DNA of 7,279 nt from a virus (Duplodnaviria; Heunggongvirae; Uroviricota; Caudoviricetes), in IMG/VR virus record IMGVR_UViG_2529292829_000014; one strand, 5' to 3'. Positions 1,446 to 7,279 of this stretch are shown piece by piece (position 1 is the first letter of the stretch; every line of letters starts with the position of its first letter). A program made the position numbers and the translations under genes. The notes under the pieces are model-generated. The model was not told the DNA's origin, made no database searches, and saw nothing but the letters and a program-made list of their open reading frames with translations.

Positions 1446-1661
1446 GTTACCTCCAGATGCGTTGCTGGAATGTACGGGACGGACTCGGTGGGCGTTCGGA
1501 GTAAGGCAATCTGACTGAGATTATCCAGTGACGGTATGTGGCGTGTTCCCCAACCAGGACGGTACGTTCACCGCGATGACATATACCAAAAGCAAAACGT
1601 TTAAAACCGAATCTGGCGCGCGTTGCTGGTTAGCCAGAAACACTGACTGATGAGGCTGACG

Positions 1662-2471: not shown

Positions 2472-2529
2472 TTTCTGGTGACGTTTGGCGGTATCAGTTT
2501 TACTCCGTGACTGCTCTGCCGCCGTTTTT
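2472..2529 (+). ncRNA. dicF: DicF small regulatory RNA (prophage-encoded antisense inhibitor of ftsZ translation)
   Basis: Sequence TTTCTGGTGACGTTTGGCGGTATCAGTTTTACTCCGTGACTGCTCTGCCGCC followed by a T5 tract matches my memory of the 53-nt E. coli DicF RNA almost base for base. It sits immediately upstream of a 62-aa dicB-like ORF, as in the Qin dicB operon. Confidence 0.8.
2487..2529 (+). terminator. Rho-independent terminator forming the DicF 3' end
   Basis: Stem GGCGGTA (2487..2493) pairs with 2517..2523 (ending CCGCC), with an inner CAGT/ACTG helix, followed by G plus TTTTT (2525..2529). No A-tract precedes it, so it is oriented for the plus strand. Confidence 0.55.
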
Positions 2530-2622
2530 AAAGTGAATTTTGTGATGCGGTGAATGCGGCTAAGCGCACGCGGAACAGTTAAAACCAAAAACAGTGTTAT
2601 GGGTGGATTCTCTGTATCCGGC

Positions 2623-2643
2623 GTTAATTGTTAACTGGTTAAC
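2623..2643 (+). promoter_or_regulatory. Three spaced copies of the palindromic hexamer GTTAA(C/T); candidate operator or promoter element upstream of dicB
   Basis: GTTAAT at 2623..2628, GTTAAC at 2630..2635 and 2638..2643, about 55-75 bp upstream of the dicB-like start. A CCTGG-N5-CCAGG inverted repeat follows at 2649..2663. No convincing sigma70 -35/-10 pair could be assigned. Confidence 0.3.
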
Positions 2644-2698
2644 GTCACCTGGAGGCACCAGGCACTGCATCACAAAATTCATTGTTGAGGACGCGATA

Positions 2699-2887
2699 AT
2701 GAAAACGTTATTACCAAACGTTAATACGTCTGAAGGTTGTTTTGAAATTGGTGTCACTATCAGTAACCCTGTATTTACTGAAGATGCCATTAACAAGAGA
2801 AAACAAGAACGGGAGCTATTAAATAAAATATGCATTGTTTCAATGCTGGCTCGTTTACGTCTGATGCCAAAAGGATGTGCACAATGA
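2699..2887 (+). CDS. dicB: DicB-like cell-division inhibitor, 62 aa
   Basis: ATG at 2699 preceded by GAGGA 7 nt upstream. 62 aa, the length of Qin DicB, and located directly downstream of dicF. The ORF-track 97-aa version starts at an upstream GTG without an SD. Confidence 0.7.
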   Translation: MKTLLPNVNTSEGCFEIGVTISNPVFTEDAINKRKQERELLNKICIVSMLARLRLMPKGCAQ

Positions 2888-3075
2888 ATTCAGCATTTGC
2901 GCTTGTTCTGACAGTTTTTCTTGTTTCCGGAGAGCCAGTTGATATTGCAGTCAGTGTTCACAAGACAATGCAGGAGTGTATGACTGCAGCAACCGAACAG
3001 AAAATTCCCGGTAACTGTTACCCGGTCGATAAAGTTATTCACCAGGATAATATCGAAATCCCGGCAGGTCTTTAA
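2884..3075 (+). CDS. ydfD: YdfD-like small membrane protein (lysis protein on overexpression), 63 aa
   Basis: ATGA start/stop overlap with dicB at 2884..2887 (translational coupling). N-terminal hydrophobic segment AFALVLTVFLVSG. 63 aa, the length and position of Qin YdfD. The ORF-track 81-aa version is an in-frame upstream extension. Confidence 0.65.
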   Translation: MNSAFALVLTVFLVSGEPVDIAVSVHKTMQECMTAATEQKIPGNCYPVDKVIHQDNIEIPAGL

Positions 3076-3168: not shown

Positions 3169-5640
3169 ATGAGTAAAGTCTTTATTTGCGCCGCTATTCC
3201 TGACGAACTGGCAACAAGGGAAGAAGGCGCTGTGGCTGTAGCCACAGCCATTGAAGCTGGCGACGAACGCCGTGCTCGAGCAAAATTTCACTGGCAGTTC
3301 CTGGAACATTATCCGGCTGCTCAGGACTGCGCTTATAAATTTATTGTCTGCGAGGATAAACCTGGCATACCCCGCCCTGCCCTCGATTCATGGGATGCTG
3401 AATATATGCAGGAAAACCGCTGGGATGAGGAGTCTGCTTCTTTTGTCCCGGTTGAGACTAAATCCGATCCGATGAACGTCACTTTTGACAAGCTGGCCCC
3501 TGAAGTACAGAACGCTGTCATGGTTAAGTTCGACACATGTGAAAACATCACCGTTGATATGGTTATTAGCGCACAGGAATTGTTGCAGGAAGACATGGCA
3601 ACATTCGACGGACATATCGTTGAAGCGTTGATGAAAATGCCAGAAGTTAACGCCATGTTTCCGGAGCTTAAGTTGCACGCCATTGGGTGGGTTAAGCATA
3701 AATGTATTCCTGGTGCTAAATGGCCCGAAATTCAGGCAGAGATGCGCATCTGGAAAAAACGTCGCGAAGGTGAACGCAAGGAAACCGGAAAATACACGTC
3801 TGTTGTTGATCTCGCCCGCACCAGAGCCAATCAACAGTACACTGAAAATTCAACAGGAAAAATCAGCCCGGTCATTGCTGCCATTCATCGCGAATACAAG
3901 CAGACATGGAAAACACTGGATGACGAACTGGCCTACGCTCTCTGGCCTGGTGATGTGGTTGCCGGAAACATTGACGGCAGCATCCATCGCTGGGCAAAAA
4001 AAGAAGTTATCGACAACGACCGCGAAGACTGGAAGCGTATCTCGGCATCAATGCGCAAACAGCCTGATGCCCTTCGCTACGCCCGCCAAACTATTTTTGG
4101 CCTTGTCCGTGAGCGTCCGATCGACATTCACAAAGATCCCGTAGCACTGAACAAATATATCTGCGAATACCTGACGACAAAGGGCGTGTTTGAGAATGAA
4201 GAAACAGACCTGGGCACTGTTGATGTTCTCCAGTCATCAGAAACACAAACTGATGCAGTGGAAACTGAGGTATCTGATATCCCAAAAAATGAAACCGCGC
4301 CGGAAGCTGAACCATCTGTAGAGCGTGAGGGGCCGTTCTATTTCCTCTTCGCAGATAAGGACGGAGAAAAATACGGTCGCGCAAACAAACTTTCTGGTCT
4401 GGATAAGGCACTGGCTGCTGGCGCCACTGAAATCACAAAAGAAGAATATTTTGCCCGAAAAAATGGCACATACACGGGCTTACCGCAAAATGTAGATACC
4501 GCTGAAGATTCAGAACAACCAGAACCGATAAAAGTTACCGCTGACGAAGTAAACAAAATTATGCAGGCAGCCAATATCAGCCAGCCTGACGCCGATAAGT
4601 TGCTTGCTGCATCACGTGGTGAATTTGTTGAAGGGATTAGTGACCCGAATGATCCGAAATGGGTTAAGGGGATCCAGACCCGCGATTCTGTGAACCAGAA
4701 CCAGCATGAATCGGAACGGAACTACCAAAAAGCGGAACAAAACAGCCCAAATGCGTTACAAAACGAGCCAGAAACGAAACAGCCTGAACCAGTGGCGCAA
4801 CAGGAAGTGGAAAAAGTCTGCACCGCCTGCGGTCAGACCGGCGGCGGCAACTGCCCTGATTGTGGCGCGGTGATGGGCGACGCAACATACCAGGAAACAT
4901 TCGATGAAGAGTATCAGGTTGAAGTTCAGGAAGATGATCCGGAGGAAATGGAAGGCGCTGAACATCCACACAAGGAGAACACTGGCGGCAATCAGCATCA
5001 CAATAGCGATAATGAAACTGGCGAGACGGCAGATCACTCAATTAAGGTGAACGGTCATCACGAAATCACATCCACCAGCAGGACGTGTGACCATCTAATG
5101 ATCGACCTTGAAACCATGGGAAAAAATCCTGATGCCCCGATCATCTCAATAGGTGCAATATTTTTCGATCCGCAAACCGGAGATATGGGACCGGAATTTA
5201 GTAAGACTATCGATCTGGAAACTGCTGGCGGAGTCATTGATCGGGACACCATTAAATGGTGGCTTAAGCAATCACGCGAAGCGCAATCTGCCATTATGAC
5301 CGATGAAATCCCGTTAGATGATGCACTGTTACAATTGCGGGAATTTATCGACGAAAACTCCGGTGAATTTTTTGTTCAGGTTTGGGGAAATGGAGCCAAC
5401 TTCGACAACACGATTTTGCGCCGTTCATACGAACGGCAGGGGATCCCCTGCCCGTGGCGTTACTACAACGATCGCGATGTACGCACAATCGTTGAGCTGG
5501 GGAAAGCCATAGACTTCGATGCCAGAACGGCTATTCCATTCGAAGGTGAGCGCCATAATGCACTTGATGACGCCCGTTACCAGGCAAAATACGTTTCAGT
5601 TATCTGGCAAAAACTGATCCCGAGTCAGGCTGATTCTTAA
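3169..5640 (+). CDS. RecE-like (annotated elsewhere as exodeoxyribonuclease VIII-like) multidomain protein, 823 aa, with C-terminal DnaQ-like DEDDh 3'-5' exonuclease domain
   Basis: Long ORF with GAGG upstream of ATG at 3169. C-terminal 180 aa (from 5098) carry Exo I MIDLET, Exo II GNGANFD and Exo III HNALDDARYQAKY motifs. Middle region is acidic and low-complexity with a CxxC-x7-CxxC zinc ribbon (CTACGQTGGGNCPDCG, 4819..4863). Sits in the exo/recE slot upstream of xis-int; it may be the intact counterpart of the IS-truncated ydfE of K-12 Qin (inference). Confidence 0.8.
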   Translation: MSKVFICAAIPDELATREEGAVAVATAIEAGDERRARAKFHWQFLEHYPAAQDCAYKFIVCEDKPGIPRPALDSWDAEYMQENRWDEESASFVPVETKSDPMNVTFDKLAPEVQNAVMVKFDTCENITVDMVISAQELLQEDMATFDGHIVEALMKMPEVNAMFPELKLHAIGWVKHKCIPGAKWPEIQAEMRIWKKRREGERKETGKYTSVVDLARTRANQQYTENSTGKISPVIAAIHREYKQTWKTLDDELAYALWPGDVVAGNIDGSIHRWAKKEVIDNDREDWKRISASMRKQPDALRYARQTIFGLVRERPIDIHKDPVALNKYICEYLTTKGVFENEETDLGTVDVLQSSETQTDAVETEVSDIPKNETAPEAEPSVEREGPFYFLFADKDGEKYGRANKLSGLDKALAAGATEITKEEYFARKNGTYTGLPQNVDTAEDSEQPEPIKVTADEVNKIMQAANISQPDADKLLAASRGEFVEGISDPNDPKWVKGIQTRDSVNQNQHESERNYQKAEQNSPNALQNEPETKQPEPVAQQEVEKVCTACGQTGGGNCPDCGAVMGDATYQETFDEEYQVEVQEDDPEEMEGAEHPHKENTGGNQHHNSDNETGETADHSIKVNGHHEITSTSRTCDHLMIDLETMGKNPDAPIISIGAIFFDPQTGDMGPEFSKTIDLETAGGVIDRDTIKWWLKQSREAQSAIMTDEIPLDDALLQLREFIDENSGEFFVQVWGNGANFDNTILRRSYERQGIPCPWRYYNDRDVRTIVELGKAIDFDARTAIPFEGERHNALDDARYQAKYVSVIWQKLIPSQADS

Positions 5641-5712: not shown

Positions 5713-5964
5713 ATGAGCGAAGTAATCATGATTGTCTCTCCCGGCAAATGGGTATCCGAAGAGCAGTTAATTGCGCTGAAAGGAATAAAAAAAGGTACGT
5801 TAAAAAAGGCCCGGGAAAAATCGTTTATGGAAGGAAGGGAATATAAGCATGTCGCTCATGACGGTATGCCATGGGATAACAGTCCATGCTTTTACAACCT
5901 GGAAGAAATTGATCGCTGGATTGAGCGCCAGGCATCAGCGAGACCAAGACGTCATCTTACTTGA
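5713..5964 (+). CDS. Excisionase-like protein (lambdoid prophage Xis-like, DUF1233 type), 83 aa
   Basis: Small ORF immediately upstream of the integrase. The sequence ...KWVSEEQLIALKGIKKGTLKKAREKSFMEGREYKHVAHDGMPW... resembles the excisionase-like proteins found upstream of int in E. coli lambdoid prophages (from memory). Start could instead be the ATG at 5728. Confidence 0.6.
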   Translation: MSEVIMIVSPGKWVSEEQLIALKGIKKGTLKKAREKSFMEGREYKHVAHDGMPWDNSPCFYNLEEIDRWIERQASARPRRHLT

Positions 5965-5983: not shown

Positions 5984-7279
5984 ATGAGAGAAGTTGAAAT
6001 GAAATATCCGACAGGCGTGGAAAACCATGGAGGGAAATTACGTATCTGGTTTGTTTATAAAGGCGTAAGAGTCAGGGAAAATCTGGGGGTTCCTGACACA
6101 GCAAAAAACAGGCGCGTTGCAGGTGAACTACGCTCCTCTGTTTGTTACGCAATAAAAACTGGTGTTTTCGACTATGCAAAACAGTTTCCCTCCTCACGCA
6201 ATCTGGAAAAATTTGGTGAGGCCCGACAAGATTTAACCATAAAAGAACTGGCTGAAAAATTTCTGGCACTGAAAGAAAATGAAGTCGCCAAAACATCACT
6301 CAACACATACCGTGCCGTCATCAAAAATATCCTGAGCATAATCGGTGAAAAAAATCTTGCCTCATCGATTAATAAAGAAAAATTACTGGAGGTTCGTAAA
6401 GAGCTACTGACTGGATACCAGATCCCCAAAAGTAACTATATTGTTACACAACCAGGGAGATCGGCTGTAACTGTAAATAATTACATGACAAATCTTAACG
6501 CCGTGTTCCAGTTTGGTGTTGATAACGGTTACCTGGCAGATAATCCGTTTAAGGGGATCTCGCCATTAAAGGAATCAAGAACCATTCCGGATCCTCTTTC
6601 GCGGGAGGAATTTATCCGTCTTATCGATGCGTGCAGAAATCAGCAAGCAAAAAATTTATGGTGTGTTTCTGTTTATACTGGCGTTCGCCCTGGTGAGCTG
6701 TGTGCACTTGGATGGGAGGACATAGATCTGAAAAATGGAACAATGATGATCAGGAGAAATTTAGCAAAAGACCGTTTCACGGTACCAAAAACACAGGCGG
6801 GAACCAATCGGGTCATTCATCTTATTAAGCCAGCAATCGACGCTCTCCGGAGTCAGATGACATTAACGAGACTGAGTAAAGAGCATATCATTGATGTTCA
6901 CCTCAGAGAGTATGGCAGAACAGAAAAACAAAAATGCACCTTTGTTTTTCAACCTGAAGTGTCAGCGAGAGTAAAAAATTATGGTGACCATTTTACCGTT
7001 GACTCAATAAGGCAGATGTGGGACGCAGCGATAAAACGTGCCGGACTCCGCCATCGAAAATCATATCAGTCGAGACATACTTATGCCTGCTGGTCGCTGA
7101 CAGCTGGTGCTAACCCGGCATTTATAGCAAACCAGATGGGCCATGCAGATGCGCAAATGGTATTTCAGGTATACGGAAAATGGATGTCTGAAAACAATAA
7201 TGCACAGGTAGCTTTGTTAAATACACAGTTAAACGAGTTTGCCCCAACCATGCCCCATAACGAAGCAATAAAAAATTAA
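5984..7279 (+). CDS. Tyrosine recombinase / phage integrase with N-terminal arm-binding domain (IntR/DUF3596-like), complete, 431 aa
   Basis: N-terminal YPTGVENHGGKLRIWFVYKGVRVRENLG arm-binding motif. Catalytic signature: Arg in TGVRPGEL (6686..6688), RHTYA box (7073..7078), Tyr nucleophile in GHADAQMVFQVYGKW (7172..7174). TAA stop is at the window end. The true start may be the ATG at 5999 (MKYPTG...). Confidence 0.9.
   Translation: MREVEMKYPTGVENHGGKLRIWFVYKGVRVRENLGVPDTAKNRRVAGELRSSVCYAIKTGVFDYAKQFPSSRNLEKFGEARQDLTIKELAEKFLALKENEVAKTSLNTYRAVIKNILSIIGEKNLASSINKEKLLEVRKELLTGYQIPKSNYIVTQPGRSAVTVNNYMTNLNAVFQFGVDNGYLADNPFKGISPLKESRTIPDPLSREEFIRLIDACRNQQAKNLWCVSVYTGVRPGELCALGWEDIDLKNGTMMIRRNLAKDRFTVPKTQAGTNRVIHLIKPAIDALRSQMTLTRLSKEHIIDVHLREYGRTEKQKCTFVFQPEVSARVKNYGDHFTVDSIRQMWDAAIKRAGLRHRKSYQSRHTYACWSLTAGANPAFIANQMGHADAQMVFQVYGKWMSENNNAQVALLNTQLNEFAPTMPHNEAIKN

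Follow-up and report, generated by a model that had tools for sequence, protein, structure and literature searches.

We analyzed a 7,279-bp stretch of viral DNA (IMG/VR record IMGVR_UViG_2529292829_000014, Caudoviricetes), hereafter the window, and in it one gene: an open reading frame (ORF) at 3169..5640 on the + strand that starts with ATG and encodes a protein of 823 amino acids (aa), exactly as an earlier note on the bare sequence had drawn it. All 7,279 bases are matched at 100% identity by a stretch of the chromosome of Escherichia coli O68:H12 strain 97.3. The annotated neighborhood shows that the window is the end nearest int of Qin, a cryptic lambdoid prophage between ydfJ/ydfK and rspB. 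At the equivalent position, K-12 MG1655 has the pseudogene ydfE (b1577), interrupted by IS2E. Since K-12 ydfE occupies the same place in Qin, the 823-aa ORF is the intact ydfE. Its product is listed in RefSeq as WP_000048360.1, "exonuclease," and falls into the PHROG family phrog_2082; other RefSeq names are "3'-5' exonuclease" and "3'-5' exoribonuclease domain-containing protein." Downstream lie the excisionase gene xis (5713..5964, +; PF06806), which begins 72 nucleotides (nt) past the exonuclease stop codon, and the gene for the tyrosine integrase IntQ (5984..7279, +; PF12167 and PF00589; RefSeq start at 5999). The chromosomal gene rspB comes after intQ, beyond the end of the window.

The 823-aa protein is a composite. 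Its N-terminal region was modeled with AlphaFold2 on a 32-sequence alignment, at a predicted local distance difference test score (pLDDT) of 90.8. The model has an alpha/beta domain of YdfE type at aa 1 to about 100 (3169..3468, +; pLDDT about 95) and a helical domain, also part of the YdfE-type N-terminal region, at aa ~105-229 (3481..3855, +). Close homologues carry the precomputed Pfam labels PF27430 and PF27432 somewhere within aa 1-345. A helical core follows at aa 237-347 (3877..4209, +) and aligns with residues 250-360 of RecE, the exonuclease of prophage Rac (alignment A2); this core, of roughly 100 aa, was detected in most of the family members surveyed. Further on, aa 475-623 (4593..5035, +) correspond to RecE 455-589, with 78% nt identity between the two genes. 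This segment includes a CxxC-x6-CxxC motif (C551, C554, C562, and C565; 4819..4866, +), which is kept in RecE, is followed by a strongly acidic linker, and is probably a zinc ribbon. The last module is a DEDDh 3'-5' exonuclease domain at aa 642-813 (5092..5607, +). In the linker from the end of the RecE homology to this domain there is a Chi octamer on the - strand (5072..5079; CCACCAGC on the + strand), close to the apparent recombination junction; it is a single octamer, and its significance is uncertain. No Chi site occurs in Rac recE on either strand.

The C-terminal domain matches Pfam family PF16473 (Rv2179c/DexA-like) with an E value of 2.4e-67, and the match covers profile positions 2-177 of 177. 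Since it scores 226.5 bits against a cutoff of 27, the assignment is far beyond chance. The three motifs from which the earlier note had read this domain as DnaQ/RNase T-like lie where it placed them: DLET at aa 646-649 (nt 5104-5115), NFD at aa 744-746 (nt 5398-5406), and HNALDDARY at aa 796-804 (nt 5554-5580). The Pfam scan agrees, finding PF16473 here and no PD-(D/E)XK domain in the protein. A second DLET at aa 682-685 is incidental. The Exo I (D-x-E), Exo II (D), and Exo III (H-x4-D) positions are all filled, giving an intact pentad of D646 (codon at 5104-5106), E648 (5110-5112), D746 (5404-5406), H796 (5554-5556), and D801 (5569-5571), all on the + strand. In an alignment with DexA of phage T4, the pentad matches at DexA D7, E9, and D119. 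Each of the five positions is kept in 33-34 of 35 relatives, a set of fused and standalone proteins at 52-75% identity that also includes DexA at 26%. Because the pentad is kept across relatives that are only 52-75% identical, its conservation argues for an active enzyme under selection.

When the domain profile was compared with solved structures, only T4 DexA was found (8KEL, E 3.8e-19); Rv2179c was not matched among them. DexA (8KEL/8KEN), a 3'-5' DNA exonuclease (PMC12153337), shares the PF16473 family and the DEDDh pentad with our domain at about 26% identity. It is a free-standing protein of 227 aa with extra loops, from a virulent phage, whereas here the domain forms the C terminus of an 823-aa scaffold protein. 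Membership in this family would make the 823-aa protein a 3'-5' enzyme, and DexA being the closest solved relative points to DNA as its likely substrate.

The central part of the protein is related to RecE. BLASTP against K-12 Rac RecE aligns aa 278-625 with RecE 293-591 (E 9e-62), and the two are near-identical from aa 470 to 625. The NCBIfam exoVIII equivalog model PRK09709 matches aa 247-625 only, with 277.2 bits, far below its cutoff of 1269. The homology does not extend into the RecE nuclease. K-12 RecE has a PD-(D/E)XK domain, PF12684, at aa 615-850 (Pfam E 4.1e-28); Pfam found no match to such a domain (RecE 606-866) in the 823-aa protein, and BLASTP homology ends at RecE 591. At the DNA level, the likeness to recE (4593-5035) stops 57 nt short of the start of the DEDDh domain. 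A review gives residues 564-866 as the nuclease domain of RecE and describes the N-terminal part as of unknown function (PMC11611040). Since the central homology ends before the RecE nuclease and PF12684 has no counterpart, the 823-aa protein is a RecE scaffold with an exchanged catalytic module. By its sequence, then, it belongs to the DexA/Rv2179c DEDDh family, with a RecE scaffold carrying the catalytic domain.

The gene also sits where recE sits. Upstream of it on the + strand are the small RNA (sRNA) gene dicF (2473-2524; Rfam, 72.5 bits), dicB (2699-2887), and ydfD (2884-3075). We found no strong promoter or terminator between these genes and the 823-aa ORF, and together (2473..3075, +) they would share an operon with it. 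The Qin order dicF-dicB-ydfD-ydfE-xis-intQ parallels the Rac order kilR-ydaE-racC-recE-recT-ralR-rcbA-xisR-intR, with recE and the 823-aa gene in the same early-left place just upstream of xis-int. The RecE slot had been proposed from gene order alone; the BLASTP match and the synteny with Rac now make it a matter of true homology. The two proteins have in common the homologous central region, with a near-identical CxxC..CxxC motif and acidic linker, and the helical core. They differ at both ends: RecE starts with PF06630, whereas the first ~230 aa here are of YdfE type, and RecE ends in a 5'-3' PD-(D/E)XK nuclease, whereas the DEDDh domain here is expected to work 3'-5'. Furthermore, recT lies downstream of recE but not of the 823-aa gene. 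Since neither a PD-(D/E)XK domain nor a RecT partner was found, we do not count the protein as a RecE in the enzymatic sense.

A RecT/Bet/Erf-like gene had been said to be missing between the exonuclease and xis. Indeed, with a gap of 72 nt between the stop codon, ending at 5640, and the xis start at 5713, no gene fits there. Homologue searches of the whole window for RecT, Bet, Erf, Sak4, Rad52-like proteins, single-stranded-DNA-binding protein (SSB; two queries), Gam, Abc2, and lambda Exo found none. Nor did these searches find any in phage HannyBb, whose complete genome record is 45,272 bp long and whose exonuclease gene is 99.3% identical to ours, or in 80 related viral contigs, all of them near-identical copies (97-100%). 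The K-12 Rac locus served as the positive control for the annealase searches, and it scored; the RecT hidden Markov model was built from adjacent ORFs only. Neither the window nor HannyBb thus holds a lambdoid Rec module as that term is used in PMC12315714, that is, a contiguous run of genes for a strand-annealing protein, with or without SSB, a nuclease, and an anti-RecBCD protein.

The missing annealase is not peculiar to Qin. We surveyed one genome per species with a scan for the core domain (closer subset alignment), which gave 66 Enterobacteriaceae loci, and counted recT at those with enough downstream sequence. All 28 of 28 PD-(D/E)XK versions have an ORF of 350-386 aa in the recT position within a few bases downstream, and the four such ORFs that were tested are Pfam RecT (PF03837, E 1e-32 to 1e-38). 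Among DEDDh versions, 0 of 20 have RecT within 8 kb. Most of these are followed by a short ORF and then by one of ~355-431 aa, which in the three loci tested are a Pfam excisionase and integrase. In the lone apparent exception, where a nuclease domain seemed to be missing, the gene is a PD-(D/E)XK version that has suffered a frameshift and is accompanied by recT. Given recT at 28/28 loci of one class and 0/20 of the other, nuclease and annealase appear to be swapped together, in a single cassette. The absence of recT across the DEDDh loci therefore makes the missing annealase a trait of the class, not an accident of this copy of Qin.

We then considered how far the scaffold itself has spread. 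A search with aa 1-345 against 1.84 billion cluster representatives returned 165 clusters only, so the family is narrow. Its members of at least 450 aa nevertheless end in different ways: 12 representatives have a DEDDh domain, 13 a PD-(D/E)XK domain, 21 a conserved domain of ~280 aa, and 20 another domain or none. The N terminus is either of YdfE type or PF06630 ("Exonuc_VIII"), and each is found with all three named C-terminal types. For example, a YdfE-type N terminus precedes PD-(D/E)XK in four representatives (such as P0128), and the ~280-aa type (P0129, P0155, P0184, and others; alignment A5) has 20 YdfE-type N termini and one PF06630. The "exodeoxyribonuclease VIII" of phage vB_EcoS-813R8 is 72% identical to our protein over aa 245-822, has a DEDDh C terminus, and lies in the same dicB-ydfD-exo-xis-int order, but joins PF16473 to a PF06630 N terminus in place of the YdfE type. 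Because this and similar prophage genes pair PF06630 with DEDDh, N- and C-terminal modules assort independently.

The ~280-aa domain may be a Rad52-like annealase fused to the RecE scaffold. It has the motif KKSLTDAIKKALSxLGFSAD and gives a sub-threshold Pfam Rad52_Rad22 match in 8 of 11 proteins tested (best E 0.0027). With hhalign this motif falls on the corresponding helix of the Rad52-like protein of phage epsilon34, although the alignment is not significant, and no PDB match to the domain was found. Proteins of this type may be the "RecE-2" proteins without a nuclease domain of Zheng et al. (PMC12315714). PHROGs calls them "exonuclease" (phrog_2489 and phrog_7838), probably by propagation.

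The DEDDh form is common. DNA of the DEDDh domain is present in 4,069 of 5,426 complete E. coli genomes (75%), with 8,098 occurrences in all and as many as seven in one genome, and 4,054 complete genomes have domain copies of at least 80% of its length. The nuclease domain of Rac-type recE is present in 1,736 of the 5,426 (32%). The DEDDh form is thus commoner in E. coli than RecE itself. Neither ydfE nor the RecE-scaffold fusion turned up as the subject of a study in the literature; the DEDDh form has probably escaped study because K-12 ydfE is broken by IS2.

Related nucleases without the scaffold have been described. Zheng et al. (2025) reported DnaQ-like nuclease genes beside int, sporadically, in lambdoid phages, and found that 22% of lambdoid phages have no recombination module, are Chi-rich, and apparently rely on RecBCD (PMC12315714). 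The standalone DnaQ-like exonucleases epsilon34 gp34 and LLS gp34 are 56-58% identical to the DEDDh domain here and 59-63% identical to other fused versions; they are single-domain proteins of 182-190 aa without the RecE scaffold. The epsilon34 homologue (56%) sits inside a full recombination module whose gene order is Rad52-like annealase, SSB, DEDDh, Abc2. LLS gp34 lies directly before xis-int, as the gene does here, and LLS is the type phage of the module-less class. DnaQ-like nucleases near int have thus been published, and the gene itself is routinely annotated; what is new is that the cassette is exchanged with recT, that the scaffold family is combinatorial, and that the DEDDh form is so prevalent.

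These data suggest the following role. The ~625 N-terminal residues form a non-catalytic RecE-type scaffold, and the last ~180 are a DexA-type DEDDh exonuclease domain in place of PD-(D/E)XK. The gene would have arisen by cassette exchange, in which nuclease domain and recT were replaced together, leaving the exonuclease next to xis-int. The enzyme would be a Mg2+-dependent 3'-5' exonuclease that acts on DNA 3' ends during lytic development, brought by the scaffold to whatever target it also brings RecE to. Its partner would be host recombination (RecBCD/RecA) instead of a phage annealase; it could, for example, trim 3' tails or flaps so that the ends become usable by RecBCD. Both the targeting by the scaffold and the cooperation with the host are steps that we infer. 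An exonuclease of DNA ends in lytic growth is favored because the closest solved relative is a DNase and the scaffold otherwise bears recombination enzymes, and also because standalone homologues sit in recombination modules, the carrier phages have no other recombination genes, and the gene belongs to the early-left operon, where no separate promoter for it was detected. HannyBb has five Chi sites on its putatively active strand against 1.07 expected, a mild excess (Poisson P 0.005), in keeping with the phages that Zheng et al. class as "no Rec module, uses RecBCD" (PMC12315714).

Several points weigh against this role. According to Zheng et al., 3'-5' DNases usually inhibit homologous recombination, and these authors explicitly exclude int-proximal DnaQ genes from the members of recombination modules (PMC12315714). 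The five Chi sites of HannyBb are fewer than the eight or more in most phages of the module-less class. PF16473 includes a genuine exoribonuclease, Rv2179c. The exonuclease activity is a prediction. The predicted fold of the scaffold has no informative relatives: when the N-terminal model was compared with PDB and BFVD, nothing matched significantly. Finally, this copy of Qin has had its immunity region deleted, and the native promoter of the dicB operon was probably lost too, so expression of the exonuclease gene may be abnormal or missing here. Taken as a whole, a 3'-5' DNA-end exonuclease that works with host recombination in lytic DNA metabolism has, in our judgment, an even chance of being right.

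The best-surviving alternative is a nuclease for defense or superinfection exclusion, encoded by the prophage, whose DEDDh domain would break down the nucleic acid of incoming phages, either DNA with 5-hydroxymethylcytosine (5hmC) or the 3' ends of RNA-phage genomes. Kang et al. (Nucleic Acids Research, 2025) solved the structure of DexA; they also claim that EcD, its homologue in E. coli, digests 5hmC DNA ("HREX"), digests T4 DNA, and protects against T4 (PMC12153337). According to a 2026 preprint, prophage-borne "TONDO" DEDDh exonucleases, many of which also bear auxiliary domains of unknown function, block MS2 and Qbeta. DexA is the closest solved relative of our domain; the likeness to EcD and TONDO is taken here at the level of the superfamily. 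That the gene has stayed intact in cryptic prophages of so many genomes (4,054) is what one would expect if it helped the host, and the neighboring dicB is reported to protect against some phages. Other observations weigh against defense. W152 of DexA, reported to be necessary for recognition of 5hmC (PMC12153337), corresponds to Y766 in our protein, with W at that position in 23 of 35 relatives, and DexA D169 corresponds to A788 in a stretch where the alignment is poor and the equivalence uncertain. PADLOC-DB v2 gave 0 families at E values up to 0.01. Furthermore, the gene lies in a repressed early-left operon without its own promoter, unlike typical defense morons that are expressed in the lysogen; it is fused to a scaffold that otherwise bears recombination enzymes; and its standalone homologues occur inside recombination modules. 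We consider defense unlikely, but with a chance that is still appreciable.

RNA is a less probable substrate, although the Pfam family is named after an exoribonuclease. A 3'-5' exoribonuclease like Rv2179c, the founding member of the family, could trim the 3' ends of phage or host transcripts, of primers, or of the precursor of DicF, a processed sRNA whose gene lies on the same strand, 650 nt upstream. Close copies of the protein sometimes bear the RefSeq name "3'-5' exoribonuclease." The domain profile, however, finds the DNase DexA and not Rv2179c among solved structures, Pfam detects no RNA-binding domain, and both the RecE scaffold and the recombination-module contexts point to DNA. An exoribonuclease therefore seems improbable to us.

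The failure to find a separate annealase could also mean that the N-terminal region supplies annealase activity and the protein is a self-contained recombinase, and some relatives on the same scaffold do bear a probable Rad52-like domain. That domain, however, replaces the nuclease at the C terminus and is not in the 823-aa protein; the YdfE-type N terminus also occurs on PD-(D/E)XK versions, a class with recT at every locus examined; and the N-terminal model, a confident one (pLDDT 90.8), does not significantly resemble any annealase fold, which makes this possibility very remote. It is just as hard to believe that the gene is a decaying, functionless remnant, even though Qin is defective, has lost ~4 kb of immunity and replication region here, and has only a pseudogene in K-12, since the ORF is intact and 99.3% identical to the HannyBb gene, the catalytic residues are kept across genera at 52-75% identity, and full-length domain copies are found in 4,054 complete E. 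coli genomes.

RecE/RecT is the workhorse of recombineering. To our knowledge, the only function on record for the 600 N-terminal residues of RecE is to enhance linear-linear recombination. The RecE scaffold has been naturally recombined with at least three different C-terminal effectors. Tentatively, and as a possibility we ourselves rather doubt, the RecE N-terminal region would be a general delivery platform on which lambdoid phages mount interchangeable DNA-end effectors, with the 3'-5' version an uncharacterized phage strategy and the commonest state of the locus in E. coli. If so, the platform would carry a 5'-3' exonuclease with RecT as partner, a fused Rad52-like annealase, or a 3'-5' exonuclease, and the last would either ready ends for RecBCD/RecA or destroy the 3' ends of competitors' nucleic acids. 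The function of the DEDDh version bears on the target of the scaffold, on how DNA ends are handled in "recombination-module-less" lambdoid phages, and on whether exonucleases of cryptic prophages protect their hosts. The cassette exchange, the scaffold family, and the prevalence data make the function of the RecE N terminus directly testable.

The remainder of the window is the part of Qin upstream of dicF. In gene order, it begins with the antiterminator Q gene on the - strand, followed by ydfU (DUF968; 396-1445, -). YdfU gives weak matches to HNH-type/RecA-dependent nuclease families (PF16784, E 3e-5; PF16786, E 0.002), and its HannyBb counterpart is annotated as an HNH endonuclease; it is possibly a second nuclease in the window, in a nin-like region beside Q. 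The 7.3-kb window has six Chi octamers, at 755 and 807 (+) and at 1213, 1271, 1397, and 5072 (-), and five of the six are inside the ydfU gene (DUF968/HNH-like).

Next to ydfU is the deletion. About 4.0 kb that other strains have is missing from Qin here (window 1446-1530 against 4447-8524 of L002). Comparison with those strains indicates that the missing DNA carries rem, hokD, dicC, a dicA-like repressor, and a ydaT fragment. In the junction region (1446-1530), upstream of DicF, a DUF1391 gene is truncated: the junction shortens this ydfA-like ORF to 40 aa from 50. Between the junction and DicF lie two overlapping ORFs without a Pfam family, one of 125 aa (1650-2027, +; phrog_33007), which RefSeq annotates in O68:H12 97.3, and one of 95 aa (1996-2283, -; phrog_34441). 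In another strain RefSeq annotates a short - strand ORF.

One related contig has an odd label. L094 (JAGZPX010000007.1), deposited as a metagenome-assembled genome of Veillonella parvula, contains the dicB-ydfD-exonuclease-xis-int block, and its DEDDh domain and that of E. coli are 100% identical. The contig almost certainly comes from an E. coli prophage and was mis-binned.

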